Source of the DNA: an uncultured Actinomycetota bacterium | GTDB taxonomy: Bacteria; Actinomycetota; Actinomycetes; Mycobacteriales; Mycobacteriaceae | Assembly (NCBI GenBank): GCA_963743225.1 | Contig: CAVUPN010000010.1 | Span: 16,084-80,083, forward strand | Length of the DNA: 64,000 nucleotides | Direction of reading: 5' to 3' | Notes under the pieces: model-generated | What the model was told of the DNA's origin: nothing | What the model saw: only the letters and a program-made list of their open reading frames with translations | Databases searched by the model: none | Program-made: the position numbers and the translations under genes | Shown: positions 1 to 64,000 of the stretch, piece after piece | Numbering within the stretch: the stretch's first letter is position 1 | Layout: each line of letters opens with the position of its first letter

Positions 1-2774
1 CCTACGTCACCCGCCAGGCGCGCTGGGTCGACTTCGAAAATGACTACAAGACACTGGATCTCGGCTTCATGGAGTCGGTGATCTGGGCATTCAAGCAGCT
101 GTGGGACAAGGGCCTGGCCTACGAGGGCTATCGGGTGCTGCCGTACTGCTGGAACGACGAGACCCCGTTGTCCAGTCACGAACTGCGGATGGACGACGAC
201 GTCTACCAAAGCCGTCAGGACCCCGCCATCACGGTTGGGTTCAAGGTGGCCGGCGGAGAGCTCGATGGCGCATACCTGTTGATCTGGACGACGACGCCGT
301 GGACGCTGCCGTCAAACCAGGCGGTGGCGGTCAATCCGGACGTCGAGTACGTGCTCGTGCAGTCGGGGGAGCGGCGCTACGTGCTGGCGAAGGCGCGGCT
401 GGCGGCGTACGCCAGGGAGCTCGGCGAAGAACCCGAGATCCTCGCCACCCATCGCGGCGCGGACCTCCTCGGCACGCGGTACCTGCCGCCGTTCCCGTAT
501 TTCATGGACGCGCCCAACAGTTTTCAGGTGTTGCCCGCCGACTTCGTGTCCACCGAGGACGGCACCGGCATCGTGCACATGTCACCGGCCTATGGCGAGG
601 ACGACATGGCGACAGGTCAGGCGGCAGACATCGTCGCGGTCACGCCCGTCGACTCCAAGGGCCGGTTCGACGAGACGGTGCCGGACTACGTCGGCCAGCA
701 TGTCTTCGACGCCAATCCACAGATCATCCGGGACCTGAAGGACCAAAGCGGACCGGTGGCGCGCAACGGCGCCGTGCTGTTGCGCCACGAAACCTACGAA
801 CACTCCTACCCGCACTGCTGGCGCTGCCGGAATCCGCTGATCTACCGGGCGGTTTCATCGTGGTTCGTCAAGGTCACCGAGTTCCGTGACCGGATGGTCG
901 AGATCAACCAGGACATCACCTGGTATCCCGAACACGTCAAGGAGGGCCAGTTCGGCAAGTGGCTTCAAGGTGCGCGCGACTGGTCGATCTCCCGAAACCG
1001 GTACTGGGGCACGCCGATTCCGGTGTGGATCTCCGATGATCCGGCCCATCCGCGCATCGACGTCTACGGCAGCCTCGACGAACTCGAGCGCGACTTCGGG
1101 GTCCGCCCCACCAACCTGCACCGGCCCTACATCGACGAGCTGACCCGCCCGAACCCGGACGACCCGACCGGCCGATCGACGATGCGGCGCATCCCCGACG
1201 TGTTCGACGTGTGGTTCGATTCCGGCTCGATGCCCTACGCCCAGGTGCATTACCCGTTCGAGAACGTCGACTGGTTCGACGGTGTCGAATCCGCCGACCC
1301 TGACAAGCGGATCGACGGCCACAACCCCGGCGACTACATCGTCGAATACATCGGGCAGACCCGCGGCTGGTTCTACACGCTGCACGTGCTGGCCACCGCA
1401 CTGTTCGACCGCCCGGCGTTTCGCACCGTTTCGGCGCACGGCATCGTGCTGGGCAACGACGGCCAGAAGATGAGCAAGTCGCTGCGCAACTATCCCGACG
1501 TCACCGAGGTTTTCGACCGCGACGGCTCCGACGCCATGCGCTGGTTTCTGATGGCATCGCCGATCCTGCGGGGCGGCAACCTGATCGTCACCGAACAGGG
1601 CATCCGGGAGGGCGTCCGGCAGGTGCTGTTGCCGTTCTGGAATGCCTACACGTTCCTGGCGCTGTACGCACCGAAGAAGGGCACGTGGCGCACGAACTCG
1701 ACCCATGTGCTCGATCGCTACATCCTGGCCAAGCTGGCGCAGCTGCGCGACGATCTCACCGCTTCGATGGACGTCTGCGACATCTCCGGCGCCTGCGACG
1801 AGTTACGTCAGTTCACCGAGGCGCTGACGAACTGGTATGTGCGACGGTCCCGTTCGCGGTTCTGGGAAGAGGACCCCGACGCAATCGACACGCTGCACAC
1901 CGTGCTGGAGGTGGCGGCCCGGCTGGCCGCGCCGCTGCTTCCGCTGATCACCGAGGTGATCTGGCGGGGCATCACCGACGAGCGCTCGGTACATCTGACC
2001 GATTGGCCGGAGGCCGGCGACCTGCCGCACGATGCCGAACTGGTCGCGACCATGGACCAGGTGCGCGACGTGGCCTCGGCGGCGTCCTCGCTGCGCAAGG
2101 CGAAGAAGCTGCGGGTGCGGCTGCCACTGCCCAAACTCACTGTCGCCGTGGAGAACCCGCAGCGCCTCGAGCCGTTCCTCGACCTGCTCGCCGACGAGCT
2201 CAACGTGAAGGAAGTCGAGCTCACCGACGACATCGCCACCTATGGCCGCTTCGAGCTGACGGTCAACGCACGCGAAGCGGGGCCTCGCCTGGGCAAGGAC
2301 GTGCAGGCCGCGATCAAGGCCGTCAAGGCGGGTGAGGGCGTCATCAACCCCGACGGGACGCTGACCGCGGGCCCGGCGGTGCTGCTGCCCGAGGAATTCA
2401 GCTCGAGGTTGGTGGCCGCGGATCCACGGGAGACGAAGCGCAGCGGAGCTCGACCCGAGCAGGAGTTCACGGCCGCGCTGCCCGAGGGATCGGGCCTGGT
2501 GGTGCTCGACGGCACCGTCACCCCTGAGCTGGAGGCCGAGGGTTGGGCCAAGGACCGCATCCGCGAACTGCAGGAGCTGCGCCGGACGACGGGCCTTGAC
2601 GTGTCGGACCGCATCTCGGTGGTCATCGAGGTGCCCGCCGAGCGCGACGCGTGGGCGCACACGCACGCCGACCTGATCGCGCGGGAGATCCTGGCGACCA
2701 GCTTCGAGTTCGGCGAGCCCGCCGACGGCACCGAGATCGGCGACGGGGTGCGGGTCGCGATCGCCAAGGCCTAA
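1..2774 (+). CDS. ileS: Isoleucine--tRNA ligase, 5' end cut by window edge
   Basis: Frame 3 is open from the window edge ([18 protein letters not shown] precedes the listed ORF 69..2774). It has the KMSKS signature ([13 protein letters not shown]) and class I aaRS architecture over about 920 aa. TAA stop at 2772-2774. Confidence 0.95.
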
Positions 2775-2817
2775 TGGCGTCCACGTCCATGGCTCGAGCG
2801 CCCTAGCATCGGCAGTT

Positions 2818-4203
2818 GTGGCCGCTCGCTGGGTGCTGCACCTCGACATGGACGCGTTCTTCGCGTCTGTCGAGCAGCTGACCCGCCCGACGCTGCGCGG
2901 ACGCCCTGTGCTCGTCGGCGGGCTGGGCGGACGCGGCGTGGTGGCCGGCGCGAGTTACGAGTCCCGGGTGTACGGCGCGCGATCGGCGATGCCGATGCAT
3001 CAGGCCCGCCGCCTGATCGGCGCAACGGCAGTGGTGCTGCCGCCCCGCGGCGTGGTCTACGGCGTGGCCAGCCGCCGCGTGCTCGACACGGTTCGAGGCG
3101 TCGTGCCCGTTCTCGAGCAGCTGTCCTACGACGAGGCGTTCGGCGAGCCCGCCGAACTCGTCGGTGCCACCGCGGAGGACGTCGAGGCGTTCTGCGAGGC
3201 GCTGAGGGCGGATATCCGCGAGGTGACCGGGCTGGTCGCGTCCGTCGGGGCCGGATCGGGCAAGCAGATCGCCAAGATCGCCTCCGGGCTGGCCAAACCC
3301 GACGGCATCCGGGTGGTCCGCCGCGACGAGGAACCGACGCTGTTGGCCGGCCTGCCGGTACGTCGACTGTGGGGGATCGGTCCGGTCGCCGAGGAGAAGC
3401 TGCACCGGCTGGGCATCGACACCATCGGCGCATTCGCCGCGCTGTCGGACGCCGAAGCGGCCAACATCCTGGGCGGGACCGTCGGGCCTGCGCTGCACCA
3501 GCTGGCCCGGGGGATCGACGACCGGCCCGTCGCCGAGAATGGACCGGCCAAACAGATCAGCGCCGAGTCCACGTTTCCCGAGGACCTCACGACCCTGGAC
3601 CAGCTGCGCGAGGCGGCGGGCCCGATCGGAGAGCACGCGCATGTGCGCCTCGAAAAGGACGGTCGTGGCGCGCGCACCGTCACCGTCAAGCTGAAGAAGT
3701 CCGACATGAGTACCCTGACGCGCTCGGCGACGCTGCCGTACGCCACCACCGACGCCGCGACGTTGATCGCGACGGCCCGCAGGCTGCTGCTCGACCCCCT
3801 CGAGATCGGCCCTATTCGCCTTGTCGGAGTTGGCTTTTCGGGACTGTCGGAGGTTCGTCAGGAGTCGCTGTTCCCCGACCTGGAGCTGATGGCCGAAGAG
3901 GTGTCCGACACGGGCCTGCCGCAGACGCTCACCGAAGCCACCGCGACGGCTCCTGCCTGGCGCGTCGGCGACGACGTCGTGCACACCGAGTACGGGCACG
4001 GCTGGATCCAGGGCGCGGGCCACGGGGTGATGACCGTGCGCTTCGAGACCCGCAGTAGCGGCCCTGGCCCGGTGCACACGTTTCCCGACAGCACACCGGG
4101 AATCGACCGGGCGAACCCCGTCGACAGCCTCGACTGGCCCGACTATCTCAGCGAGCTGGCCGCCCGCTCAGCCCCAGCGGGCGACGACGTCGTCGACGGG
4201 TGA
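2818..4203 (+). CDS. dinB: DNA polymerase IV (Y-family, DinB/DinX type)
   Basis: 461-aa ORF with a GTG start. The N-terminus [21 protein letters not shown] is the canonical Y-family catalytic motif. Position after ileS matches mycobacteria. Confidence 0.9.
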
Positions 4204-8000: not shown

Positions 8001-9224
8001 CGGCACAACGGCGGGTAGCCGACCTGGTTCGCGATTCCTACGGTCGGCTGCTCGCCGTGCTCGCGGCCCCCACCCGGGATATCGCCGCCGCCGAGGACGC
8101 GCTCGCCGATGCGCTGGAACGCGCACTCGACCGGTGGCCTGATGACGGGATCCCAGCCAATCCGGAGGCGTGGCTGCTGACAGTGGCCCGCAACAGGCAG
8201 CGCGACATGTGGAAGTCACGCGCCTACCGGATGACCGAGCCGCTCGGCGAAACCGACGACCGCCCAAGCGAACTCAGTGATTTTGGGGACATGTCGGAGA
8301 TTCCCGACAGGCGCCTCGAGCTGATGCTGGTGTGCGCGCACCCCGCCATCGCGGCCAACATCCGTACCCCGCTGATGCTGCAGGTCGTGCTGGGCGTCGA
8401 GGCAGCCGCCGTCGCGGAGGCCTTCGCGGTGCCGCAGGCCGCGATGGCCCAGCGGCTGGTGCGCGCCAAGAAGCGCATTCGCGATGCGGGCATCCCGTTC
8501 GAGCTGCCCGGACGCGCCGACCTCGACGAGCGGCTGCCGGCTGTGCTCGAAGCGGTCTACGGCGCATATGCGATCGACTGGCAACTCGGCGGCCAGGGCG
8601 CACCGATCGAAACGCTGTCCGCCGAGGCGCTGCACCTGGCGCTGGTGCTGGCCGAACTGCTGCCCGACGAGCCAGAGGTACTCGGGCTGGCAGCGCTGGT
8701 GTGTCTGTCCGAGGCCCGTCGGCCGGCGCGGCGCACCACTGCGGGTCGGTTCGTGCCGCTTGACGAGCAGGACACCACGAGCTGGGATGCGACGCTGATC
8801 GCGCGCGGGGAGGGCCTGCTGCGTCGCGCGCACGGCTTCGGGCGGCCGGGCCGCTTCCAGTACGAGGCGGCGATCCAGTCGGCGCACTGCAGCAGGGCGT
8901 CGCGTGGACACGTCGATGTAAAGGCGTTGCGCCCGCTGCACCGGGCGCTGCTGCAGGTGGCACCGTCGCTGGGCGCCGCGGTGGCGCTGGCTGCGGTGGA
9001 GGGCCAGATCGACGGGCCCGACGCCGGGTTGCGCCTGTTGGACGGCATCGACGACCCGGCCGCCGAAGCGTTTCCAGCCGGCGTGGACCACGCGTGCGCA
9101 TCTGCTGGCCCAGGCTGGCCGGACCGGGCCAGCCGCGGACGCGTACCGCACCGCCATAGAGCTGACCAGCGATCCCGGGGTCGCCCAGTACCTGCGCGGA
9201 CAGCTGAGTTCGCTACGGCCTTAA
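7985..9224 (+). pseudogene. ECF-like sigma-70 family factor (YCII-associated type) with a C-terminal frameshift
   Basis: ORF 7985..9346 reads normally to ...GIDDPAAEAF and then becomes Arg/Pro-rich nonsense. The conserved tail FQPAWTTRAHLLAQAGRTGPAADAYRTAIELTSDPGVAQYLRGQLSSLRP* is in the +1 frame and ends at TAA 9222-9224. The shift is near 9060-9072. Confidence 0.7.
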
Positions 9225-9281
9225 GACACGCATCGCGACACGCCCGTGCTCGTCGGTGGGCGGCCATAGACTGGCGTCCCT

Positions 9282-23215: not shown

Positions 23216-25461
23216 CCGTCTTCTCCAACAACGCCACCGGTGTTTCGTTGAGCAGCTCGGATACGTTGAGTCGGCCGCTATACCTATGACCGGTGAGGAT
23301 CTCGGTCCACTCTCCGTTCGGGAGCGTCAGGAACGTGTCGCCCCAGCCGGTTTCGCTCAGCCGAACGGTGTGGCGGCTGACCGCGACGAGCACGTCGTCC
23401 CCGCGCAGAAACGCGACGAGATGCTCGGCGGACTCTCCCTGGGCGAGCACTGGCGTGTAGCCGCCCGACAGGAAGGTGTCGGGTCGCGCTCTGCGCAGAC
23501 GCAGAGCGGCGGCGACGACGCACATCTTCGCGTCGTTGCGGGCCGCGAGCGCTTCCCGCCGTCGCGCATAGTCCACCGGCCTGCGGTTGTCGGGATCGAC
23601 GAGGCTGTCGTCGAACAGCTCGGTGCCCTGGTACACGTCGGGAACGCCGGGGACGGTGAGCGCCAACAGCTTCTGGCCGAGTGCGTCGCAGATGGCGTCG
23701 GCCTGCAGTTGGGTGACGAGTCCGCTGAGTTCGACTCCGACCGGACCGTCGACGACCTCGTCGAGCCATCTGTGTACGGCGGCCTCGAATTCTTCGTTCG
23801 GCTGGTGCCAGTAGGTGTGGACTGCCGCTTCCCGCATTGCCTTCTCGGCGTAGTCGTGCAGTCGAGCCCTCAACTGATCGGTGACGACTCCGTCGGCCGG
23901 CCACACACCGAAGACGTTCTGCAACAGGAACAGTGCGGTCGACTCGTCGGGCCACGGCGTGGCCAGCGCCCACCTGCCCGTCAGTTCGTTCCACAGAGCG
24001 GGCACCTGTGACAGCACCCCGATGCGGGCGCGCACGTCCTCACTTCGCTTGGTGTCGTGAGTCGACAGCGAAACCATGGCCTGCGGCCACAACCGTGCCC
24101 GCACCGCGGCGGCATGGTGGAACTCGGCGGGGTCGACCCCGAAGCGGTCGGGTTCGCCGCCGACCTCGTTGAGCGCCACCAACCGCGTGTCCCGGTAGAA
24201 CAGGCAGTCCTCCACGGCCTTGGCGGTCACCGCCCCGCATAGCTGTTGGAGTCGCGTCGCGGGTTCGGTGTGCTCGAGGGCCGCCGAGACCAACCGAAGC
24301 GGTCGGGCCAACTCCGGTGTGGTGCTTGCGGTCTCGGCGAGCGCAGTCGTCATCACCGCGGACATTCCGCGGTAGTCGCAGCGGTAGACGTCGAGGTGGG
24401 TGAGCAGGGCGGCGACGGCATCGGGAAGCCCCGGCTGGTCGGTTCCCACCGCCCTGACAATGGCGCGGTGCAGTCGGGCCAGCTCGCTGCCCAGTGTTTC
24501 GGTGGCAGCGAACATCTTCAGTCGAGCGGCACTGTCGGGCGGCTCGCCTCGACGTCAGCGCACCCGCCGGGTCGATGAAGACGCCTCCGATTTCGCGCAG
24601 TGCGTCATACCCGGTGGTTCCCGCCACCGGCAGTGTAGGTTCGAGCGCTTCGTCGACCGCCAGGATCTTCTCGATGACGATCCACGCGTCGGGACCGGTG
24701 ATCTCGCGCAGCCACGTGAGATAGCCGGCCGGGTCGGACAGTCCGTCCGGGTGGTCGATGCGCACGCCGTCGACCAGACCTTCGTCGAACCAGCGTTTCA
24801 CTTCCACATGGGTGGCGTCGAAAACGGCACGGTCTTCCTGGCGCAGACCGGCCAGCGAGGTGATCGAGAAGAACCGGCGGTAACCGCAGACGCCGTTGCG
24901 CCAGCCGATCAGGCGGTAGTGCTGACGGTCGTGCACCTCGGGCCCGGTGCCCGATCCGGTCCCCGGTGCGATGGGATAGGCGAGGTCGCCGAGCCGCAGC
25001 ACATCCCCGTCCACCACGAGGTCGGCGACATCGTCGTCGGAACCCAACACCGGCAGCACAATTCGGCTGCGCTCGTCCAACTCCCAGTCGATATCGAAGT
25101 ACGACGCGTACGCCGAGTCCCGGCCGTTCTTCAGCACGTCCCACCACCACGCGTTCTCTTCCGGTGAGCCGACGCCGAGGTGGTTGGGAACGATGTCGAC
25201 GACCAGGCCCATGCCGCGCGATCGCGCCGCCGCCGACAACCGGGCCAGTCCCTCGGCGCCACCCAGCTCCGCAGAAACGGTGGTGGGATCGGTGACGTCG
25301 TACCCGTGCGTCGAGCCGCGCACCGCGGTCAGGATCGGAGACAGGTACAGGTGCGTCACGCCAAGGTCGTCAAGGTAGGGCACCAGGTCCTCGGCGTCGG
25401 CGAAAGTGAAACAGTCGCCGCGCATCTGCAGTCGGTACGTCGACAGCACGCGAGAAGCCAT
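23208..25461 (-). pseudogene. treY: Malto-oligosyltrehalose synthase split by one frameshift
   Basis: The N-terminal half is in ORF 24040..25461 (to ...GGVFIDPAGAL, then nonsense). The C-terminal half is in ORF 23208..24515 (FAATETLGSELARL...). The shift lies between about 24520 and 24557. There is an 8-nt overlap with the treZ start. Confidence 0.85.
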
Positions 25462-34400: not shown

Positions 34401-34669
34401 AGACGCTGCTGGAGCGTGGCACCGAGGGCGACCTGGCCGAAGCCCAAGAGGCGATCGACCGGTTGGCGAACGTGTCGGCCGATCAAGGTTCGGCGATGAG
34501 CGAGATCACGCTGCTGCGGCTGCGCGCACTGCTGGCCAAGGCGCACGGCGATGAGGCCGCCCATCGCGACTACCGGGACCGCTACCGCGCCATGGCGACA
34601 TCCCTTGGGTTCGAGGGGCATATCGACTGGGCGAAGGCGATGACCGAGGGCGACACGAGGTCACGGTGA
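31470..34669 (+). pseudogene. Zinc-ribbon / class III adenylate-guanylate cyclase / AAA(STAND) ATPase / TPR regulator with about 4 frameshifts in the TPR region
   Basis: ORF 31470..34055 covers the CxxC..CxxC ribbon, the cyclase domain (VTVLFADVVRSM, GDGVMAIFGAP) and the Walker A (GPPGIGKS). Past about 33750 the conserved sequence hops frames: DWFDAGEFGELLRWSQTVVDLAAGDPAKGAGFGVG (+1), back to frame 0, then ORF 33901..34554, then ORF 34268..34669. Confidence 0.8.
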
Positions 34670-36260
34670 TGCGTCCTCACCCCCGTCCTTAATATCGTCG
34701 TCTTTGCCGCCGCTAAGTGCCTTCTTGATGCTGTCGGAAAACTTGGTCATGACCTTCTTGACGTCACTGCGGGCGTCCTTGAACGCATCTCGCGCAGGTG
34801 TCTTTCGCGCGGGTCCTGCGATGGACGTGGGGGAGCCGTTGTCGTCACCGCTGGACTTCACGATCGTGCGCCCGTTCCCGATCACCGACTTCACCGCACC
34901 AATGGACTCGTTGATTCGATGCATGAACGCCGGCAGCTTTTGACCAACCTTGCCCGGGTCTGCCTCGACATGTCCTTGGATGTCGACCGACTCCGGAAGC
35001 GGTGACCCCACCGCGGGCGGCTTCTCTGGCGCCGGCCCGACGCGCGCCAGCTCCACGACCGCGTCCCCATCCTCGCTGGCCGGTGGGACCGGAATGCGCA
35101 GCGGCGGCGGCGAACCGATGAGAGCCGCCGCGTTGGTGATGCCCTCGCCGACTGCGTCGACGAGATCGCCGGCCACCGTCGCCGGGTTGAGTGGCGGGAT
35201 CAGCCGTGCCGGGGTGGGTTCCCACGGGTCAATGCTGCGGTCATAGCCCAGTTCCACGATCTCCCGAAAGAACGGCTCGACCACATCGATCACCGGCTCG
35301 GGCACCCTCAGGGTGCGCAGCGGACCGAACAACGGCAGGTCCTCGGTCTCGAAGAAGTAGTAGTCGGTGTCACCGTACTTGCCCTGGTAGGCGGCGGCTG
35401 TCGTCGGATCGGCAGCCAGGCTGACGTCGAACGGGTACGTGTGCACGTAGACGAAGCCCAGGACCGCGTTCATGAGGGAGATGCCGTTGAGCGGATACAA
35501 CGGGAAATCGGCCATGAAGTCGTACTGGCGGGTGATCTCCACCGTGTCGAACTGGGTGTCGGTCGGCGCGGGACCGTTGAACGACAAATCGAGGATCGGG
35601 ATGTAGAGGCCCGGGAACCGCGCAAGAAAGCCCCCGTTGGGAAGATTGGGGTCACCGCCCAGCACGAAGTCGATATCGGGGGCTTGGTTCCCTTCGGGTA
35701 CTGCTCGGCGAGCTTGCGCTTCTCCCGGTTCGCGATGACCGCGCTCTGCGAGTAGCCGTAGATCACCAGATGGTCGTTGGGGTGCGCGGCGATCGCCCGC
35801 CTCCAGATCGGCGACCCCGTCCTGGACCGACTGATTGAGGGTGAGGTCGAAGAGCCCCGTGAGATTCCACCACGGCACGTCCCACCCTGGGCCGCCAGGC
35901 CCGAAAAGCTCCGGGGACCCGAGCCCGAGGCCGAGCAGCGAGACGAGGCGACCAAGCCCCGCGACGGGCCAAAACCCCTCGGGCGTCGTCACCGCGATCG
36001 TACTCGATCTGGCCCGGATGCGTCGGCGCGATGAACTGGTTCTTGACCGACTCGACGTAGAAGTCATCGGGCGTCGGGACGCCGCTCGTGCCCATGATCA
36101 AGGCGCACGTTACGTCGGTCTTCGTACACGGCGGGCTCGAGGCCGACAGCCGCACCTCCGGCGACACCGTCGACACCGGCATGACCGTGGCCGCCACCGC
36201 CAGGGCTGCGACGCCGATCGACACCGTCATCCGCGTGGCGGCGTACTTTGCGTTTCCCAT
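34661..36260 (-). pseudogene. Secreted PE-PPE (PF08237) serine-hydrolase-like protein with about 3 frameshifts
   Basis: Signal peptide and start are in ORF 35763..36260 (MGNAKYAATRMTVSIGVAALAVAA...ALIMGTSGVPTPDD). The body is in ORF 34661..36067. The catalytic segment AIAAHPNDHLVIYGYSQSAVIANREKRKLAEQYP is only in ORF 35470..35955. Shifts are near 36000, 35797 and 35680. Confidence 0.75.
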
Positions 36261-44351: not shown

Positions 44352-45350
<999 letters not shown>

Positions 45351-45352
45351 CT

Positions 45353-45568
45353 GTGGTTTGTCTGATGGGGCCGGCCAAGTTCAACGTCTACACTGGCGAA
45401 CCCGCCGGCGGCGCGGTGCCCGCGGCGGCCCAACTCGGTCTCGAACCGCCACGGTTCTGTGCGGAGTGCGGCCGGCGGATGGTGGTGCAGGTGCGCCCCG
45501 ACGGGTGGTCGGCCAAGTGCTCCCGCCACGGTGTGCTGGACTCAAAGGACCTGGAGACCGAGCGATGA
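45353..45568 (+). CDS. bsaP: Small zinc-ribbon protein downstream of bioB (Rv1590 / BsaP-like biotin synthase auxiliary protein)
   Basis: 71 aa (or 67 aa from the ATG at 45365). [25 protein letters not shown] gives CxxC...CxxH ligands. It starts 3 nt after the bioB stop. Confidence 0.6.
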
Positions 45569-46230
45569 GCGACACGCGCGAAGAGCCGATGACGGCGATG
45601 AATGAAGTTGCGCCACCGCGGATTTCGCGTCGCCGAGCCGCTGTCACGGTGATCGTCGGCCTGGCGATCGGCGGAGCCCTGATCGGTGCGTTGTGGGCGT
45701 GGCTCGCACCGCCGATCCACGGCGTCATCGCACTGACCAAGAGCGGCGAGCGGGTGCACGCCTATCTGGGCAACGAGGCGGACAACTTCTTCATCGCGGC
45801 GTTCCTGCTGGTGGGCATGGTCGTGGCGCTGGCGGTCGTGTGCGCGGTGTTGGTGTGGCAGTGGCGGGCGCATCGCGGCCCGGTGATGGTCGCCGCGCTG
45901 ACGATCGGCTCGGCGGCCGCTGCCGGCGCCGCGGCGGGGGTCGGCGCGCTGCTGGTGCGGTCGCGCTACGACATCATCGACATCGCGGGCGCCCCGATCT
46001 CACCCGAGCATCGGGTGCACTACGTCACCGAGGCGCCGCCGGTGTTCTTCGCGCACACGCCGTTGTTGATCGCGACGTCGATCCTGTTTCCCGCGGCGAT
46101 GGCGGCGCTGGTCTACGCGCTGATGGCGGTGTCGACGTCACGCGACGATCTCGGCGCCTGGCCTCCGGTCGAAGCCGGTCCTGCTCGGCCGCCGGTCACA
46201 GCGGAGAGCGCTCTACCGTCCGCCCCGTGA
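45565..46230 (+). CDS. Conserved membrane protein (Rv1591-like)
   Basis: 221 aa from the ATG at 45565 (ATGA overlap with the upstream stop). Four hydrophobic segments. Confidence 0.7.
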
Positions 46231-47542
46231 CGACCTTCGCGGCGATCCGCACCAGCCGCGCCATGCCCACGTAGGTCATCGGGTTCAGCAGCGTCGGCCA
46301 CTTCGTCCGCACCAGGTGCTCGGTCAGCGGCTTGCCCGCGAACCGGTCGGTCAGCCAGCGCAGCGTCATCGGCGCCGACATCGGGTGCAGCAGCATGTGC
46401 TCGCTGAACATGTCGCGGTGGTAGGTCACCGACGCGCCGCCGGACCGATAGGTGTCGGCCAGCTCGTCGATGTCCTCGACCGAGACGATCCGGTCGTGGA
46501 CCGCCTGCACGATCAGCACCGGCGGCGTGGGCACCGCGGTGCCCAGCTTGATGCTCGTCGAAGACGTGCTGCACCTCGGGCGTGTCGAGGATCTCGCTCG
46601 AGCGGCCGGTCGACCAGCTTGCCCATGTCCATGCCGACCAGCCGCAGCACGGCGTCGGACGGTGGTCATGTTCTCCAGCCGCAGCAGCATCGCCTTGCCC
46701 GTCGTCGGTGGCGTGCTCCTGGATGACCCGGTCGAGGTCGGGATAGATGTGCGCCAGCGCGGCGACCACCATCGCGGGCAGCCCGGACATAGAAGCTGCC
46801 GTTGAGCCGGCGGAAGGTGTGGCCGAGGTCGCCGACGGGCGATCCGAGCACCGCGCCGACGATGTTCAGTTCCGGCGCGTAGGAGCCGCTCATCTCGGCG
46901 GCCCACGCGCTGGCCAGGCCACCGCCGGAGTAGCCCCACAGGCCGATCGGCGCCGTCGCCGACAGGCCCAGCCGCTCGGAGCTCAGCGCGGCGCGCAGGC
47001 CGTCGAGAACGCGGTAGCCCGGCTCGTACGGTGTGCCCCAGCTCCCGTTCGCGTCCCTCGTGGTCGGGCACCGACACCGCCCAGCCCTCGGCCAGCGCCG
47101 CGGCGATGAGGAAGAACTCGAACTGCGCGAGCGCTCCCGGCGCCAGCGCGCGCCGGCGCAGCGCGTACGACGGGAAGCAGCGCGACGTCACGGCGTCGAT
47201 CGCGCACTGGTAGGACACCACCGGGGTGACCGGCCTCGGGCGCGCGTTCGGCGGGCACGATCACCGTGGTGACGGTCGCCTCCGGATTGCCGTGCATGTC
47301 GGTGGTCCGGTACAGCAGCTGCGTGGCGGTGAACTTCTGCGGGATCAGCCCGAGAAACGCCAGCTCGACGTCGCGGCTGCGCAGCACGGTGCCCGGCGCG
47401 GGAATGCTGGAAACCTGCGGGTGGGTCGTAGAACGGGTCGTCGGCGGGCAGCTGCGGACGGATGCCCCGCTGCAGTTCTTCGTGCGGTGCGGTGCCCGAT
47501 CCACTCGGCACCGGTTGCCGGAGCCACGCTGCCCAAGTCCAT
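46196..47542 (-). pseudogene. Secretory lipase (LIP family, Rv1592c-like), heavily frameshifted
   Basis: Conserved segments lie in alternating minus frames in the order ATGAEWIG / [20 protein letters not shown] / [20 protein letters not shown]...TVIVPAE / [23 protein letters not shown]...VPDHEG / [17 protein letters not shown]...[17 protein letters not shown]...RRLNGSF / [16 protein letters not shown] / ...IKLGTAVPTPPVLIVQAVHD...RWLTDRFAGKPLTEH. I count about 9 shifts. Confidence 0.8.
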
Positions 47543-47584
47543 CCGGGCATTCTTACTTAAGAAGGCATTAAGAATCCAGTCGAC

Positions 47585-48278
47585 TCACCCAGGCGGCCGC
47601 AACGCGGCGAACTCGTCGGTGACGCGATAGGCGCGACTCGGTGAAGCGGTACAGCGCCGCGGGACGGCCCCCGCTGCGGCCCGACCGCGCGGTGGTGCCG
47701 GTCGGGGTGATGACGCCGCGACGTGCGAGCACCCGCTGCAGGTTGGTGGCGTCGACTTGATAGCCGAGCGCGGCGCCGTAGATGTCGCGCAGCGTCGACA
47801 GCGCGAATTCCTTTGGCGCCAAGGCAAATCCGATGTTCGTGTAGGACATCTTCGCGACCAGGCGGGTGCGCGCGTGCTCGACCATCGGTCCGTGGTCGAA
47901 CGCCATCGGCGGCAGCGCGTTCACCGGATGCCAGCGGGTGTCGGGCGGCAGCTCGGGGGTGGCGGGGGAGGGCACCAGGCCCGAGGAACGTCGACGCGAT
48001 GGTGCGGACGCCGGGAACCCGGTGTGGGTCGGAGAACACAGCCAGCTGCTCGAGGTGAGCCAATTCACGCAGGTCGACCTTCTCGGCCAGCTGACGCCGA
48101 ACTGAACTGATCATGTCCTCGTCGTGACGCAGCTGGCCGCCGGGCAGCGACCACGCGCCGCGCTCGGGTTCTCGGGCGCGCTGCCACAGCAGCACGTGAG
48201 CTGCGGGTCCCGCGTGCTCAGCTGCCGAACCTGGAACACGACGGCGAGCACTTCGTGTGCAGTGCTACTATTGACCAT
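47585..48278 (-). pseudogene. nrtR: Nudix-related transcriptional regulator NrtR (Rv1593c-like) with about 3 frameshifts
   Basis: MVNSSTAHEVLAVVFQVRQLS is at the tail of ORF 48111..48566. The Nudix part LLWQRAREPERGAWSLPGGQL is in ORF 47557..48195. The wHTH part MSYTNIGFALAPKEFALSTLRDIYGAALGYQVDATNLQRVL is in ORF 47568..48068. The tail YRVTDEFAALRPPG* is in ORF 47585..47827. Confidence 0.75.
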
Positions 48279-48301
48279 GTTTTCGATTATAAGTCGAAAA
48301 C
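48279..48301. promoter_or_regulatory. Palindrome GTTTTCGA-N7-TCGAAAAC in the nrtR-nadA intergenic region (candidate NrtR operator)
   Basis: 8+7+8 perfect inverted repeat that is AT-rich in a GC-rich genome. It starts directly after the nrtR start codon and ends 24 nt before the nadA ATG. Confidence 0.55.
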
Positions 48302-48325
48302 CTGACTGTCCGCGAGGAGGCGGCC

Positions 48326-49349
48326 ATGACGGTGTTGGACCGACCGGATCGTCAACAGTCCGACCGGCTATTCCGGCGTCGACGGCGACGAGGAATGGGC
48401 CGCCGAGGTGCGACGCCTCGCCGAGCTGCGCGGCGCCACGCTGCTGGCGCACAACTACCAGCTGCCCGCGATCCAGGACGTCGCCGACCACGTCGGCGAC
48501 TCGCTGGCGCTGTCGCGGATCGCCGCCGACGCGCCCGAGGACACCATCGTGTTCTGCGGCGTGCACTTCATGGCCGAGACCGCGAAGATCCTGTCAGCCC
48601 GGACAAGACCGTGCTGATCCCCGACCAGCGGGCCGGCTGCTCGCTGGCCGACTCGATCACCGCCGACGATCTGCGCGCCTGGAAGGCCGAGTATCCCGGC
48701 GCGGTCGTGGTGTCCTACGTGAACACCACCGCGGCGGTGAAGGCCGAGACCGACATCTGCTGCACGTCGTCGAACGCGGTCGAGGTGGTGGCGTCGATTC
48801 CCGAGGACCGCGAGGTGCTGTTCTGCCCGGACCAGTTCCTCGGCGCCCACGTGCGGCGGATCACCGGCCGCAAGAACCTGCACGTGTGGGCCGGCGAGTG
48901 CCACGTGCACGCCGGCATCAACGGCGACGAGCTGGCCGACCAAGGCGCTCGCACATCCCGACGCCGAGCTGTACGTGCATCCCGAATGCGGTTGTGCGAC
49001 TTCGGCTTTGTACCTCGCCGGCGAGGGCGCGTTCCCCGAGGACCGGGTGAAGATCCTGTCCACCGGCGGCATGCTGGACGCCGCCCGCGAGACCCACGCC
49101 CGTCAGGTGCTGGTCGCCACCGAGGTCGGCATGCTGCACCAATTGCGCCGGGCGGCACCGGAAGTCGACTTCCGCGCCGTCAACGACCGCGCGTCGTGCA
49201 AGTACATGAAGATGATCACGCCCGCCGCGCTGCTGCGCTGCCTGGTCGAGGGCGCCGACGAGGTCGACGTCGATCCCGACATCGCCCGACGGGCCCGCGC
49301 CAGCGTGCAGCGGATGATCGAGATCGGCACGCCCGGCGGCGGCGAATGA
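48326..49349 (+). pseudogene. nadA: Quinolinate synthase with 3 frameshifts
   Basis: MTVLDRPD is in the ATG-48326 frame. [46 protein letters not shown]...AETAKILS is in the frame of ORF 48408..48617. [20 protein letters not shown]...[14 protein letters not shown] is back in the first frame. [17 protein letters not shown]...[10 protein letters not shown] is in ORF 48975..49349. Confidence 0.9.
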
Positions 49350-49356
49350 GACTGGC

Positions 49357-50864
49357 ATGCAGCGTGCCGACGTCGTCGTCATCGGCACCGGGGTCGCCGG
49401 GCTTGGTCGCCGCCCTGGCCGCACACCGTCGCGGCCGCAACGTGGTGGTGCTGAGCAAGGCCGCCGATACCGCAACGTTCTACGCGCAGGGCGGCATCGC
49501 GGTCGTGCTGCCGGACACCGACGACTCGATCGACGCCCATGTCGCCGACACGATCGCCGCGGGCGCCGGGCTGTGCGACCCGGATGCGGTGCGGTCGATC
49601 GTGGCCGACGGCTACCGCGCGGTCGTCGAATTGGTCGACGACGGAGCGCGTTTCGACGAGGCCGCGCCCGGCCGCTGGTCGCTGACCCGGGAGGGCGGGC
49701 ATTCGCGGCGCCGCATCATCCATGCCGGCGGCGACGCCACCGGCGCCGAGGTGCAACGGGCGCTCGACCACGCCGCGGCGACCGCTGGACATCCGTCGCA
49801 ACCACGTCGCGCTGCAGATCCTGCAGACCGGCGGCGCGGTGACGGGCGTGCTGGTGCTCAACGAGGACGGGCTCGGCATCGTGCACGCGCCGTCGGTGGT
49901 CCTCGCGACCGGCGGGCTGGGTCATCTGTACTCGGCGACCACGAATCCCGAAGGGTCGACGGGCGACGGCGTCGCGCTGGCGCTGTGGGCGGGTGTGCCG
50001 GTCAGCGACATCGAGTTCATCCAGTTCCACCCGACCATGCTGTTCGACGGTCAAGCAGGCGGCCGCCGTCCGTTGATCACCGAAGCCGTTCGCGGTGAGG
50101 GCGGCGATTCTGCTTGACCGGCAAGGGAAATCGATCACCGCAGGCGTTCATCCGATGGGCGACCTGGCCCCGCGTGACGTCGTGGCGGCAGCGATCGACG
50201 CCCGGCTCCGGGACACCGGCGATCCGTGTGTCTATCTCGACGCCCGCGGCATCGCCGACTTCGAGCGGCGGTTCCCGACGGTCACCGCGGCCTGCCGGGC
50301 CGCAGGCATCGATCCGACGCGCCAACCGATTCCGGTGGTGCCCGGGGCGCACTACAGCTGCGGCGGCGTCGTGACCGACGTGCACGGCCGCACCGACCTT
50401 CCCGGGTTGTTCGCCGCGGGTGAGGTGGCGCGCACCGGCATGCACGGCGCCAACCGGTTGGCGTCCAACAGCCTGCTGGAGGGCCTGGTGGTGGGTGGGC
50501 GGGCCGGGAAGGCGGCTGCCCAGCATGCGGTCGACGCCGGACCCGCACAAGCGGAGCTCGGTGAGGTCGAGACACGGGTCGCACTCCCCCGCAAGGTCTT
50601 ACAGCGTGCGATGTCGCACCACGCGTCGGTGGTCCGCGACGGCGACGGCCTGCAGCGGCTCACGCAGGAGCTGGACGCAGCGGTGCCACGGGACATCGAT
50701 TGCAGGGCCGACTTCGAGGACGTCGCGTTGACCGTGACCGCCCGCACTGTCGCCGCCGCGGCGTTGGCGCGAACCGAATCTCGCGGCTGTCATCACCGCT
50801 CCGACTTCCCCGACACCGACCCGGCGTTGGCGCACAGCCTGGTGCTCGCGGCGGCTGCTGCTGA
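49357..50864 (+). pseudogene. nadB: L-aspartate oxidase with 3 or more frameshifts
   Basis: [16 protein letters not shown] starts at ATG 49357. [19 protein letters not shown]...[15 protein letters not shown] is in the frame of ORF 48326..50098. [11 protein letters not shown]...[10 protein letters not shown]...ITEAVRGEG is in ORF 49722..50117. [14 protein letters not shown]...ESRGCHHRSDFP is in ORF 50095..51375. The native stop is not identifiable. Confidence 0.9.
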
Positions 50865-51722
50865 TGGAGCTCAGCGCCGACGAGCTGACCGAAGCTCGCA
50901 GGGTGATCGCGCGCGCTCTGGAAGAAGACCTGCGCTACGGCCCCGACGTGACCACGCTGGCGACGGTGTCCCGCCGATGCGACGCACGACGGCGTCGATG
51001 GTGACCCGCGAACCGGGTGTGATCGCCGGCGTCGACGTCGCGCTGCTGGTTCTCGACGAGGTGCTCGGCCAGGACGGCTACCGGGTGAAGCACCGCGTCG
51101 ACGACGGTGCACGCCTGGAGTCGGGCGCGGTGGTGCTGATCGTCGAGGCGCCAACGCAAGGTCTGTTGACCGCCGAGCGCACGATGCTGAACCTGGTCTG
51201 CCACCTGTCCGGCATCGCGACGACCACCGCGGCGTGGGTCGAGGCGGTGAGGGCACCAACGCGAAGATCCGCGACACCCGCAAGACGCTGCCGGGCCTGC
51301 GGGCGCTGCAGAAGTACGCGGTGCGGGTCGGCGGCGGCGTCAACCACCGGATGGGGCTCGGCGATGCAGCGCTGATCAAGGACAACCACGTCGCGGCCGC
51401 GGGTTCGGTGGTGGCCGCGCTGCGTGCCGTCCGCGAAGCGGCGCCCGATCTGCCGTGCGAGGTCGAGGTCGACTCGCTCGAACAGCTCGACGAGGTGCTG
51501 GCCGAAAACGTGGAACTCGTTCTGCTGGACAACTTTCCGGTGTGGCAGACGCAGATCGCCGTGCAGCGCCGCGACGCCCGCGCGCCCCAGACGAAACTCG
51601 AGTCGTCGGGCGGTCTGTCGCTGGACACCGCGGCCGAGTACGCGGGTACGGGCGTCGACTACCTCGCCGTCGGCGCCCTCACCCATTCGGTGCGGGTGCT
51701 GGATGTCGGCCTGGACATCTAA
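50864..51722 (+). pseudogene. nadC: Nicotinate-nucleotide pyrophosphorylase (quinolinate phosphoribosyltransferase) with 2-3 frameshifts
   Basis: ATG 50864 gives MELSADELTEARRVIARALEEDLRYGPDVTTLATV. TTASMVTREPGVIAGVDV...TAERTMLNLVCHLSGIATTTAAWVEAVR is in the nadB-tail frame. GTNAKIRDTRKTLPGLRALQKYAV...VLDVGLDI* is in ORF 51234..51722. Confidence 0.9.
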
Positions 51723-53824: not shown

Positions 53825-56854
<3,030 letters not shown>

Positions 56855-56858
<4 letters not shown>

Positions 56859-58247: not shown

Positions 58248-59067
58248 ATGGCGCTCGACGAGACCGACCTCGACGCGCTGGTCTCCGCGGCAGCCGCGAT
58301 CCTCGACGAGGCAGCCAAGCCGTTCGTGTCCGGTCACCGTGCCGATCTCGGCCGTGCCGAAGAAGGGCAACGACTTCGCCACCGAGGTCGACCTCGCGAT
58401 CGAACGCCAGGTGGCCGACGCGCTGGTATCGAAAACCGGCATCGAGGTGCACGGCGAGGAATTCGGCGGCGCCGACGTCGACTCACCGCTGGTGTGGGTG
58501 CTCGACCCGATCGACGGCACGTTCAACTATGCGGCCGGTCTGCCGACCGCGGCGATACTGCTCGCGCTGGTGCGCGACGGCGATCCGGTGGCCGGGTTGA
58601 CGTGGTTGCCGTTCACCGATCAGCGATTCACCGCAGTCGTCGGAAAGCCGCTGTACGCCAACGGTGTTGCCCAGACGCCGCTGGAGCCGGCCAAGCTGGG
58701 TGACTGCCTGGTCGGCACCGGCACCTTCGACGTCGACTCCCGCGGACGATTCCCTGGCCGCTATCGGGTCGCAATTCTGGAGCGTCTGAGCCGAGAGTGC
58801 TTGCGGATGCGGATGCACGGCGCCATCGGCCTCGACCTTGCCTACACCGCCGCCGGAATCCTCGGTGGGACAATCACCTTCGGCCATCATGTCTGGGACC
58901 ACGCGGCCGGCGTCGCGCTGACGCGGGCCGCCGGAGGCATCGTCACCGATCTGGAAGGTAACGACTGGACAATCACGTCAAAGTCGGCACTGGCCGGACT
59001 GCCCGGCGTGCATGGTGAGCTCCTCGACATCGTGCGGTCGGCCGGAGATCCCGAGGACTACCGATGA
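58248..59067 (+). pseudogene. impA: Inositol monophosphatase family protein (ImpA-like) with one N-terminal frameshift
   Basis: MALDETDLDALVSAAAAILDEAAKPFVSGHRAD is in ORF 58248..58703. SAVPKKGNDFATEVDLAIERQV...WVLDPIDGT...HVWDHAAG is in ORF 58339..59067. The shift is near 58343. An in-frame GTG at 58339 could still give an N-terminally truncated product. Confidence 0.75.
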
Positions 59068-60195: not shown

Positions 60196-61200
60196 TTGGG
60201 CACGAGGAAAGCCCCCGCGCTCGCCGCGGTGGGGGTGGCCGCGTTGGCGGTCCGTCGTTACGCCGCATTACGGAAAGCGATGGCGACCGTGGCTCCGGAG
60301 TTGCGCACCCCGGTGCTCGGCGTCTCGTCCATCCCGTTCAACAAGCTGACGCTGCCCATCGTTCGGATGGCGATGGGGTTCCGCTCCAGTCCCGGACCCG
60401 GGGTCTCGGTCACCAAACACCATGTCGGCGACTCGGCCGTCGATGTACTGGTGCTGACACCGAGCGAGCGTCGCGCACCTCGACCGGCTCTGCTGTATCT
60501 CCATGGCGGCGGAATGATGGCGGGCACAGCGCAGTTCGAAGTGGCACACGTCGCACCCCTCGTAAGAGACATCGGTGCAGTGGCGGTGTCGCCGGATTAC
60601 CGGCTGGCCCCCGAAAACCCCTTCCCCGCAGGACTAGACGATTGCATGGCCACGCTGAAATGGATGGTCAAACACGCTGACGAGCTCGGCATCGATCCCG
60701 ACCGGATCGCCGTGTGCGGAGCGAGTGCGGGCGGCGGCCTGGCCGCGGCTGTCGCGCAGCGTGCCTTTGACGAGGGCATCCCCCTGCGGGCCCAGGCGCT
60801 CGTCTATCCGATGATCGACGATCGAACCGCGCTGCGAGATGACCTCGCCGGTCGCGGTGAGCTGACGTGGTCACCGAAGTCCAACCGGTTCGGCTGGACC
60901 GCATACCTGGGACGCGAACCGCGCACGTCGGACGCACCGGAATATGCGGCGCCCGCCCGGCGCACCGATCTGGCCGGGCTGCCGCCGGCATGGATCGGAG
61001 TCGGTGACTTGGACGTGTTCTATGACGAGGACGTCGCCTACGCCGAGAAGCTGAAGGCGGCGGGTGTGCCGTGTGAACTCGTCACCGTGCCCGGGATGTA
61101 TCACGGCGCCGATGGCATCGTGCAGAAGGCTTCGTCAATGCGGGACTTTCGCGCCAGCATGGTCAAACATTTGCGTACCTATCTGGACGCGGAGGCGTAG
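60196..61200 (+). CDS. Alpha/beta hydrolase, HSL-type esterase/lipase
   Basis: 334 aa. Oxyanion HGGG (LYLHGGGMMAG) and nucleophile GASAGGG. The start is uncertain (TTG 60196 or ATG 60280). Confidence 0.75.
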   Translation: MGTRKAPALAAVGVAALAVRRYAALRKAMATVAPELRTPVLGVSSIPFNKLTLPIVRMAMGFRSSPGPGVSVTKHHVGDSAVDVLVLTPSERRAPRPALLYLHGGGMMAGTAQFEVAHVAPLVRDIGAVAVSPDYRLAPENPFPAGLDDCMATLKWMVKHADELGIDPDRIAVCGASAGGGLAAAVAQRAFDEGIPLRAQALVYPMIDDRTALRDDLAGRGELTWSPKSNRFGWTAYLGREPRTSDAPEYAAPARRTDLAGLPPAWIGVGDLDVFYDEDVAYAEKLKAAGVPCELVTVPGMYHGADGIVQKASSMRDFRASMVKHLRTYLDAEA

Positions 61201-62151
61201 AAGGTTTCCAGTTCCCGCGCGACGTCGGGGCCGCTTGGCGTGTAGATGAATTCCTGCACACCCTGTTCCGCCAGTTGAGTGACTCGAGCCCCGATCTCTT
61301 CGGCGCTTCCGATCACTGCCATCCCATCCGGGGCCTCGTCGAGCAGTTGGTGGTCGCGTTCGGTCAGATGGGTGACGTGGCCCTGATGGGTGAACAAATG
61401 CCGTTCACCCTCCGGGGCGAGATCTTCGAGCGCATCCCGCCAGGCGCGTCCGCCGGGCATCGCGTCGACGGCGCTCGGGGCCGACGACGGAATACGCCTC
61501 GTGATAGCTGACCACCTGCCACGGCCCGACGGCCTCGCGAACCCGTTGACTGCCACGATCTTCGCCGGGCTCGAGCACAGTGGCAGGCATCAGCATGGCG
61601 ACGGGCAGCGCGTGTTCCATGGGCAGGCCGATAATGCCGTCGGCGATCTCCGCGGCGAGTTCGATACCGCGTGGCCCGAAGACGCTCAACCAGATCTCGA
61701 CGTCGACCGGACGCGGTGCGGCCAGGTCTTCGGCGTGCAGCATCCGTACCGGCCGGCCGTCGATCATCGTCGTCTCGCCCGCGAGCAACGCCCGCACGGC
61801 AGTCACATAGCTCTTCAGATACCGCAGCGTCAGCGGCCGCTGACCCATGGTGCGACGCGCGGTTGCGCCGGTGCCGAAGCAGGCCCGGAATCGGCCATCG
61901 GAGAGTCGGGCGATTGTGGCGATCGCCGACGCCGTGGTCATCGCCGACCGCTCGTGCGGGATCAGAACGGCGGTGCCAAGGCCGATGCGCGACGTTCGTT
62001 CGGCGGCGAGCGCCAGATGGACGAACGGGTCTTCCCACAACGGTGCAGAGTCGAAGATCCAAACCCGCGAATAGCCCAGGGTTTCGGCAGCGACAGCGAG
62101 GTCGCTGAAGTCGGGGCCCGGCGGCAACCCGCACGAAAGCTCGATCGTCAT
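61179..62151 (-). pseudogene. LLM-class (luciferase-like, probably F420-dependent) oxidoreductase with one frameshift
   Basis: The N-terminal 220 aa are in ORF 61405..62151 (MTIELSCGLPPGPDFSDLAVAAETLGYSRVWIFDS...). The C-terminus PSAVDAMPGGRAWRDALEDLAPEGERHLFTHQGHVTHLTERD... is in ORF 61179..61556. The shift is near 61475-61495. Confidence 0.75.
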
Positions 62152-62264: not shown

Positions 62265-62730
62265 CTAAGCGCTCTGCCGTCGCCGCAGCACCTCCAGCGC
62301 CTTGTCGGCGTGCGTATCCATGCTGAACTCACTCGAGATCACGTCGAGAACGGTCCCGTCGCTGTCAATGACGAACGTCGTCCGCTTGACCGGCATCAGC
62401 TTGCCCAGGAGCCCGCGCTTGACGCCGAACGCAGTGGCGACCTTGCCGTCGGCGTCGGACAGCAGCGGATAGTCGAAGCGCTGGGTGTCGGAGAACTTGG
62501 CCTGCTTGGTCGACGGGATCGGTGCTGATACCGACGCGCGATGCGCCGAGAGCGGCGAAATCGTCGGCGAGGTCGCGGAAGTGACAGGCCTCCTTGGTGC
62601 ACCCGGGCGTCATCGCCGCGGGGAAGAAGAACAACACGGTCGGGCCGTCGGCGAGCAACGATGTGAGGCTTCGCACAGCACCCGTTTGGTCTGGCAATTC
62701 GAACTCGGCTACCCGGTCACCACGTTTCAT
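62265..62730 (-). pseudogene. bcp: Peroxiredoxin Bcp (BcpB-like) with one frameshift
   Basis: MKRGDRVAEFELPDQTG...FFFPAAMTPGCTKEACHFRD...GISTDPVD is in ORF 62365..62817. KQAKFSDTQRFDYPLLSDADGKVATAFGVKRG...ALEVLRRRQSA* is in another frame and ends at 62265. The 466-nt span is not a multiple of 3. There appears to be an extra C near 62509. Confidence 0.8.
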
Positions 62731-62792
62731 GGGTGTCACTGTATGCCTGACTGACTGCCGGTCCCGCGGTAGGAGTCTGGGAGGATTACTAC

Positions 62793-64000
62793 GTGCAAAC
62801 GACCGCCAACCTCGCACTCACCACGCCGCGCGAGGACTTCCGGGCGCTGGCCGCCGGGCATCGGGTGGTTCCGGTGACTCGTAAGGTGCTGGCCGACAGC
62901 GAGACGCCGCTGTCGGCATATCGCAAGCTGGCTGCCAACCGTCCGGGCACGTTCTTGCTGGAATCGGCGGAGAACGGGCGGTCCTGGTCGCGGTGGTCGT
63001 TCATCGGGGCGGGCGCGCCGTCGGCGTTCACGGTCCGCAACGGTGAGGCGGCATGGCTGGGGGTAAGCCCGCAGGACGCGCCGAGCGGCGGCGATCCGCT
63101 GCGGGCGCTGCACGAGACGCTTGAGCTGCTGCAGACCGAACCGGTGGCCGGGCTGCCGCCGCTTTCCGGCGGACTTGTGGGCTTTTTCGCCTACGACCTG
63201 GTGCGCAGGCTGGAGCGACTGCCCGAACTGGCCGTCGACGACCTCGAGTTGCCGGACATCTTGCTGCTGCTGGCCACCGACATCGCCGCGGTCGACCACC
63301 ACGAGGGCACCATCACGTTGATCGCCAACGCGGTGAACTGGAACGGCACCGACGAACGCGTCGACTGGGCCTACGACGACGCGGTCGCGCGGCTGGACGT
63401 CATGACCGAGGCGCTCGGCAAGAACCTGTCGTCGGCGGTGGCGACGTTCAGCAAGCCCGACCCGCTGCACCGCGCGCAGCGCACGGTCGACGAATACGGC
63501 GCGATCGTGGAGCGGCTGGTCGGCGAGATCGAAGCGGGCGAGGCGTTCCAGGTGGTTCCGTCGCAACGCTTCGAGATGGACACCGACGCCAACCCCCTCG
63601 ACGTGTACCGGATGCTGCGCGTCTCGAACCCCAGCCCGTACATGTATCTGCTGAATGTGCCCGACGAGGCTGGCGGACTGGACTTTTCGATCGTCGGGTC
63701 GAGTCCTGAAGCGCTGGTAACCGTCAAGGACGGTCGTGCGACGACGCACCCCATCGCGGGAACGCGGTGGCGCGGCGCCAACGAAGAAGAGGACGTGCTG
63801 CTCGAGAAGGAGCTGCAGGAGGACGAGAAGGAGCGCGCCGAGCACCTGATGCTGGTCGACCTCGGCCGCAACGACCTGGGCCGGGTTTGCGTGCCCGGGA
63901 CGGTGCGGGTGGAGGACTACAGCCATATCGAGCGCTACAGCCACGTCATGCACCTGGTGTCGACGGTGACCGGGCGGTTGGCCGACGGCAAGACCGCGTT
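62793..64000 (+). CDS. trpE: Anthranilate synthase component I, 3' end beyond window
   Basis: GTG at 62793 behind the [57 protein letters not shown] translated 63120-63950 by hand and it stays in frame (…[15 protein letters not shown]…[12 protein letters not shown]). Confidence 0.93.

Follow-up and report, generated by a model that had tools for sequence, protein, structure and literature searches.

In a window of 64,000 nucleotides (nt) from an uncultured bacterium of the Mycobacteriaceae (GenBank assembly GCA_963743225.1, contig CAVUPN010000010.1, positions 16,084 to 80,083; "the window" below means this whole stretch), some 15 genes can be rebuilt only by switching reading frame. The original prediction read these frameshifts as pseudogenisation filtered by purifying selection, as in a host-restricted mycobacterium undergoing genome reduction, and kept indel-prone reads in patches as a fallback. 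We find that the frameshifts are very probably errors in the consensus of a metagenome assembly made from long reads alone, most likely Nanopore reads processed with Flye and Medaka, and not mutations or gene decay. The lesions occur in this assembly only, their spectrum is not that of mutation, they are patchy, and they are not accompanied by relaxed selection. The pseudogene interpretation fails because the lesions are assembly-private, the genes are under purifying selection, the indel spectrum is not mycobacterial and the relatives live in soil and rhizosphere. The fallback was essentially right, and the cautions attached to it (short lesions of 1-2 nt, their local clustering, well-conserved residual proteins and the lack of nonsense codons) were the correct clues. 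The frameshifts are an assembly artefact, and new biology is not indicated.

Frameshifted genes and comparison assemblies

The window is a segment of an actinobacterial chromosome with a G+C content of 65-71%, and its gene order is one that we take to match that of Mycobacterium tuberculosis from Rv1536 (ileS) to Rv1609 (trpE). A scan of GTDB species-representative genomes gave no relative above 82-86% nt identity, and its top matches were soil metagenome-assembled genomes (MAGs), several of them from Microflora Danica (MFD). In a scan of JGI metagenomes all relatives were at or below ~82% amino acid (aa) identity, and they came only from soil and rhizosphere. Exact-protein look-ups with the DnaE1, HisF and DUF2567 proteins of the window found no further contig carrying them. 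The close relatives are all from soil or rhizosphere, and a host-restricted organism is not indicated.

Much closer sequences were reached through individual proteins. A search with a TreY fragment led to a 99%-identical fragment of 313 aa on contig_98374 of ENA ERZ25039469 (here L161), which matches window positions 20755-35461 with 98.06% nt identity overall and at least 99.5% in most 300-nt bins. Homologues of NadA and DUF2567 led to two more contigs: L165 (ERZ25039456, 268 kb), which is 96.4% identical to the window at 36.7-46.2 kb and 93.6% at 46.2-51.6 kb, and L163 (ERZ25039552, 568 kb), which is ~90% identical. Two further contigs of ~42 kb each, L162 and L164, belong to the same ENA accession series. 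Because the only sequences near-identical to the window are ENA contigs with Flye-style names and consecutive ERZ numbers, we regard the window as most probably a long-read assembly of the Flye type. These close references were used in place of a blastx comparison with stop-to-stop open reading frames (ORFs) from 80 GTDB loci, in which the shadow ORFs of high-GC genomes made noise.

Lesions were located in two ways. A frame hidden Markov model (HMM) based on codon usage, and trained on the window's own long ORFs, gave a reference-free segmentation. A polarised census was taken from three-way alignments of the window with L165 and L163. At the sites previously reported in 15 genes the HMM changes frame on one strand with no stop and start in between, and the reference-based checks concur. 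The earlier count of ~40 indels in ~16 genes is borne out by a recount of ~40-45 lesions, listed here with plus and minus signs for inserted and missing bases.

7985-9346, plus strand, ECF sigma factor gene: +1 at ~9073 (9070..9076), where GCG TTT CCA G reads as TTT/TTC + CAG
treZ 3' end, minus strand: +G at 21665 and at 21730, neither in L161
treY, minus strand: +1 at ~24555 (24545..24565), ACG-T-CGA; compared with the intact 750-aa protein P0002, both halves are 93% identical
31572-34655, plus strand, cyclase-STAND-TPR regulator gene: patch 33753..34480 in the last third, frames +3 to +1 to +2
34673-36276, minus strand, PE-PPE hydrolase gene: frame HMM switches at 35681, 35791 and ~35930 (35681..35981)
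38599-39109, plus strand, 2H phosphoesterase gene: +G at 38660, missing from L165
39219-42294, plus strand, cyclase-STAND-LuxR regulator gene: 40995, 41017, 41150 (+2), 41583 and 41790, from the three-way alignment
Intergenic spacer from the YjbR gene to orf258: +T at 42919, window-private in the three-way alignment
45561-46230, tail of the DUF2567 gene: +1, +2 and -1 at 46172, 46186 and 46217, compared with the 225-aa L165 protein
46172..51251, lesion patch of 5.1 kb: 27 window-private indels of 1-2 nt across the DUF2567 tail, LIP, nrtR, a spacer, nadA, nadB and nadC; its parts after the DUF2567 tail, from the three-way alignment, are the next six lines
LIP lipase: nine or ten +1 insertions, 46554 to 47633
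nrtR: 47983 and 48196
nrtR-nadA spacer: 48304, an intergenic lesion
nadA: 48340, 48597 (+2) and 48940
nadB: 49359, 49402, 49784 and 50106
nadB/nadC junction and nadC: 50854, 50973, 50983 and 51251
58248-59067, plus strand, impA: +1 shift at ~58328 (58326..58332), frame +3 to +1 in the HMM
61179-62151, minus strand, F420/LLM-type oxidoreductase gene: one shift at ~61480 (61435..61556), from the stitched protein
62271-62740, minus strand, bcp: +1 at 62517, from the stitched protein

Protein domains rejoin across several of these sites. In the ECF sigma factor, Sigma70_r2 and DUF6596 lie upstream of the lesion and a TPR match lies in the tail, whose conserved sequence FQPAWTTRAHLLAQAGR... sits in the next frame (+3). 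The stitched 2H phosphoesterase gives one match to positions 8-139 of 152 of 2_5_RNA_ligase2, the stitched LLM protein covers Bac_luciferase positions 25-313 of 314 in a single stretch, and stitched Bcp does the same for AhpC-TSA positions 2-121 of 124. The C-terminal fragment of ImpA begins at position 37 of the 271 of the Inositol_P profile, and the first 36 positions are in another frame. Reconstructing nadA, nadB and nadC takes three or four frames for each gene, and the aa identity of the products to those of relatives is 85-97%. As the original prediction had observed of rebuilt frames, no premature stop is present in LIP, nrtR, nadA, nadB or nadC after reconstruction. The ORF called for DUF2567 looks whole at 221 aa, yet its final ~22 codons are out of frame.

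In the TPR regulator gene, for which four lesions had been reported, the HMM gives two net frame changes and the comparison with L161 six indel differences of 1-2 nt. Its initial 2.2 kb is free of lesions, and the indels relative to L161 fall within a patch dense in single-nucleotide polymorphisms (SNPs). An apparent 10-nt duplication at 33747-33762 is, relative to L161, a 1-nt insertion and a nearby SNP. The five window-private insertions in the LuxR regulator comprise four of +1 and one of +2.

The reported integrity of other genes was reproduced, with no HMM switch inside ileS, dinB, dnaE1, ilvA, glgX, the acyltransferase gene, bioA/F/B, hisD/C/B/H/A/F or trpE. DnaE1 can be aligned over its whole length with the M. 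tuberculosis structure 7PU7, and HisD, HisC and HisB are 98%, 96% and 91% identical to their L163 counterparts, with unproblematic frames.

Private lesions and selection

Genes that are broken in the window are open in sister assemblies. TreZ (582 aa) and the PE-PPE protein (532 aa) are both open in L161; LIP (463 aa), NrtR (230 aa), NadA (339 aa) and NadB (504 aa) are all open in L165; and NadA, NadB, NadC and the LuxR regulator (1102 aa) are open in L163. If the damaged genes were very young strain-specific pseudogenes, de novo NAD synthesis, the lipase, TreY/TreZ and several regulators would just have been lost and the indispensable genes kept clean. Such an origin would explain why ileS, dnaE1, ilvA, the bio and his genes and trpE are spared, why nadABC and nrtR, which form one regulon, are damaged together, and why the LuxR regulator is broken in L165 as well as in the window. 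However, inheritance predicts shared lesions, and none of the polarisable window lesions was found in L161 (98% identical), L165 (94-96%) or L163 (~90%), nor is any lesion common to any two of the assemblies. Consensus errors should be private to each assembly, and the window, L161, L165, L162 and L164 each have 1-nt indels of their own. Together with the evidence on selection and spectrum given below, this makes young pseudogenes very unlikely.

The counts vary by assembly and by region. At 46189-51603 the census gives 24 indels private to the window, of which 20 are +1, three are -1 and one is +2, compared with 3 private to L165 and ~5 private to L163. At 38675-46226 (7.5 kb) indels found only in the window number 9: five are in the LuxR regulator, three are in the DUF2567 tail and one is intergenic. 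There L165 has 17 private small indels, at least 11 of them at other positions of the LuxR regulator. In L162 and L164 almost all genes are split, bioB and hisC included. The bioA gene of L161 is split by two extra C nucleotides that are absent from the window and L165. Lesions of the same type thus occur in bioA (L161) and bioB (L162/L164), which weighs against young pseudogenes. Even L163, the best assembly of the series and an otherwise clean MAG contig, contains such errors: in its nrtR region (7877-9800) there are two private +C, corresponding to window positions 47724 and 47953, and nrtR is not called as a gene.

The division into core and accessory genes on which pseudogenisation had been argued was made post hoc, and nadABC serve cofactor biosynthesis just as bioABFD do. 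Many dispensable genes also have no lesion, among them dinB, vapBC and the TetR, YjbR, esterase and LysE genes.

We also considered a mixture, in which most lesions are artefacts and a few are genuine polymorphisms or pseudogenes, the candidates being treY and part of the LuxR or TPR regulators. The treY gene is broken at the same site in two assemblies, the LuxR regulator is broken in two lineages, and the TPR regulator of L161 also seems to end early. However, the treY lesions, which lie within the same ~10 nt (L161 10895-10925), are +1 in the window and -1 in L161, and with opposite signs they are not one inherited mutation. Moreover, the LuxR lesions have no position in common, and selection on the treY, LuxR and TPR candidates is not relaxed. 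We therefore consider this mixture improbable. The treY site may be a systematic trouble spot for basecalling or polishing. A Thr/Ser polymorphism between strains also falls here, and the window's sequence at the site includes the palindrome GACGTC.

Indels that resemble products of evolution occur in the same alignments, with lengths of 3, 7, 21, 22 and 33 nt, and are in-frame or intergenic. The longest type is found in hisB (56244-56858), which has an in-frame length difference of 33 nt from L163 in an otherwise 91-96% identical HisB and appears to illustrate genuine indels in functional genes here.

The nature of the codon changes private to the window provides a second line of evidence. 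In LIP, nrtR and nadABC these are 64 synonymous to 19 nonsynonymous; in six intact neighbouring genes they are 35 to 13, and the two sets do not differ (Fisher P = 0.67). The LuxR regulator has 36 synonymous to 17 nonsynonymous changes. In mutation accumulation lines of M. smegmatis, 856 substitutions accompanied 207 small indels (PMC4938668). At that ratio, 24 neutral indels would be accompanied by ~71 nonsynonymous changes, whereas 19 were seen in total (P = 2e-13). The damaged genes carry the same signature of purifying selection as their intact neighbours. For young pseudogenes, both the lack of nonsense codons and an intact-like nonsynonymous/synonymous ratio are unexpected, and 24 indels beside 19 nonsynonymous changes are incompatible with a substitution-to-indel ratio of 4:1 (PMC4938668). 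Real lesions could be reconciled with so few substitutions if a recent burst of +1 non-slippage insertions, caused by an insertion-specific mutator in a free-living soil strain, had inactivated de novo NAD synthesis, TreY/TreZ and several signalling regulators before substitutions accrued; we regard this as extremely unlikely.

Spectrum, distribution and origin of the lesions

The lesions comprise ~34 insertions and 4 deletions, all of at most 2 nt. This excess of insertions is significant (P = 0.002) even when compared with the 2.1:1 insertion bias of M. smegmatis (PMC4938668). An argument from deletion bias was dropped, as M. smegmatis has more small insertions than deletions. The inserted bases do not look like slippage either. 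Single-base insertions that duplicate a neighbour number 6 of 26 (23%), whereas random simulation gives 50% (P = 0.005). In M. smegmatis ~79% of small indels fall in simple repeats (PMC4938668), and compared with that proportion the 6 of 26 give P = 2e-9. Neither the preference for simple repeats nor the range of sizes that pseudogenes should display was found. Programmed frameshifting and phase variation were rejected, since slippery or repeat sites are lacking and lesions are many in each gene.

What many of the insertions do resemble is a pair of alleles written in series. For 8 of the 20 non-duplicating insertions, the inserted base equals the base of a relative in the adjacent column, compared with 8.3% of simulated random insertions that were realigned identically (P = 1.2e-4). 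Examples are CTG-TC|AG-CCC, at a site where the serine codon of relatives is TCN or AGC; CAT|G, opposite CAT or CAG in relatives; and ccc-G|T-cg, with G in L163 and T in L165. Non-slippage insertions with such a two-allele signature are a further point against young pseudogenes.

The lesions are also clustered within genes (Fisher combined P = 0.006), in the final 0.8 kb of each 3.1-kb regulator, in 300 nt of the PE-PPE gene and in 65 nt of treZ. The patch at 46172-51251 ignores gene borders, extending over five genes, two spacers and the DUF2567 tail. Pseudogene lesions should instead spread along the whole of a dead gene and respect its identity, which was not the pattern observed; here the clusters spill into intergenic DNA and into the tail of a gene that looks expressed. 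Errors should be associated with polymorphic sites, and indel differences from L161 indeed co-locate with SNP-dense bins (Mann-Whitney P = 0.002). When the big patch was examined as a mosaic of two known haplotypes, no alternation of the best match was seen at 150-nt resolution.

SNPs relative to L161 are themselves unevenly distributed, with dense patches in window 21500-35461 at 22.1-22.9, 25.7-26.2, 29.9, 33.5-34.6 and 35.0-35.5 kb, which look like recombination tracts or real strain microdiversity. Because the SNPs in intact genes are mainly synonymous (12 to 1 in glgX), the population would appear to have real microdiversity, patchily arranged. Gene content varies as well between nadC and hisD, where the window (51.7-53.7 kb) has polyketide cyclase and LysE genes, L163 (13.4-17.7 kb) an amidohydrolase, a TetR regulator and an ADH gene, and L162 (13.5-18.7 kb) a PE-PPE gene. 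The L165 contig terminates within nadC, and this strain-variable junction adjoins the largest lesion patch. The source is a soil population of Mycobacterium/Mycolicibacterium that is free-living and genuinely diverse at the strain level.

From these observations we infer the window's sequencing platform and a mechanism based on mixed strains. In poorly determined stretches of consensus, the assembler or polisher would add one base, rarely two, or drop one. The poor determination would stem from low local depth, from stacked reads of co-occurring strains, or from both, and the two alleles of one SNP would often be written side by side. The resulting patches would be a few hundred bases to ~5 kb long and would disregard gene borders. 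Inter-strain SNPs, and with them errors, would be more numerous in fast-evolving genes (regulators, lipase, PE-PPE) and in strain-variable neighbourhoods, and this excess of SNPs would produce the apparent selectivity for accessory genes.

Plain low-depth noise is a simpler version of the same idea, in which one or two raw reads carry each patch, read errors are random, and strain mixtures are irrelevant. The patches, at 0.1-5 kb, are of the order of a read length, and smaller contigs, if size is taken as a proxy for depth, have more lesions: few in L163 (568 kb), some in L165 (268 kb), more in the window's contig (86 kb) and many in L162 and L164 (~42 kb). However, a raw read would bring 20-40 random substitutions in 5 kb, for which window-private changes that are 3:1 synonymous leave no room. 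Insertions are ~8 times as common as deletions, those that duplicate a neighbour are scarcer than expected, and the inserted base agrees with an allele of a relative far more often than in random insertions. Noise of this kind is rather unlikely. We favour failure of a mixed-strain pile-up, plus modest depth, over noise from single reads because substitutions are not elevated, insertions dominate and both SNP alleles are often encoded.

Several points weigh against consensus error as the explanation. The platform and the local depth of the window are deduced rather than seen directly. The genes nadA, nadB and nadC and their regulator nrtR are one functional unit, and to lose them together would make biological sense. 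No lesion lies in the ~20 kb of genes for replication, translation, histidine and biotin, which is somewhat improbable if patches are placed at random (P roughly 0.003 to 0.01, depending on a "core" defined post hoc). The two-allele signature was found in only 40% of non-duplicating insertions. Finally, the typical consensus errors of Nanopore data are homopolymer deletions, unlike those of the window.

Consensus error of this kind has precedents. Microflora Danica, the source of the nearest GTDB relatives, used Nanopore-only Flye assembly with a minimum read-coverage cut-off and one round of Medaka (PMC12313526). According to work from the same group, R10.4 assemblies need ~40x depth to avoid frameshift errors (PMC9262707). 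As in the frameshift errors of Nanopore-only assemblies and MAGs, which truncated-protein tests of the IDEEL type detect, indels of 1-2 nt split conserved genes in the window (PMC9262707, PMC12313526). Also as in such assemblies, the lesions do not recur where the same taxon was assembled with better coverage, are commoner in poorer contigs and come without substitution decay. Unlike classic Nanopore homopolymer deletions, the errors here are chiefly single-base insertions outside homopolymers, arranged in kb-scale patches, and many resemble both alleles of a strain SNP in series.

The host-restricted mycobacteria M. leprae, M. lepraemurium and M. ulcerans have undergone reductive evolution with mass pseudogenisation. 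Like them, the window has many frameshifted genes among intact housekeeping genes, in a region presumably syntenic with M. tuberculosis Rv1536-Rv1609. Unlike in those species, the lesions are not shared with conspecific assemblies, and there are no nonsense codons, larger deletions, expansion of insertion sequences (IS) or relaxed ratio of nonsynonymous to synonymous substitution rates (dN/dS); furthermore, the G+C content is 65-71% and the relatives are from soil.

The case is chiefly of use as a caution: patchy consensus indels in long-read-only MAGs can mimic selective pseudogenisation. The risk is that pathways are falsely called lost (here NAD, trehalose and inositol-phosphate metabolism) or that a host-restricted lifestyle is falsely assigned. 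Four diagnostics that need no reads can be reused elsewhere: the privacy of lesions relative to sister assemblies, the synonymous-to-nonsynonymous ratio of lineage-private changes, the test for neighbour-duplicating insertions, and the test for insertions that encode both alleles of a SNP.

Neighbouring features

A frame switch at 19140 is the junction of two genes, vapB (a Phd/YefM-type antitoxin) and vapC (a PIN toxin), which form a pair on the minus strand at 18760-19566 that is also present in L161. The LLM gene lies on the minus strand; the plus-strand ORF at 60196-61434, a rejected candidate for it, encodes an intact esterase.

Between window positions 19495 and 21542 lies a segment that is missing from the 98%-identical L161. 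It contains a C-terminal fragment of an IS110-family transposase (PF02371, 20045-20626, minus strand), for which an N-terminal DEDD domain was sought in all frames and not found, and ~1.1 kb at 20439-21542 that scored as non-coding. The intact Abhydrolase_3 esterase (HGGG/GxSxG) occupies window positions 60196-61200, between hisI and the LLM gene, and a six-frame reading easily confuses the two.

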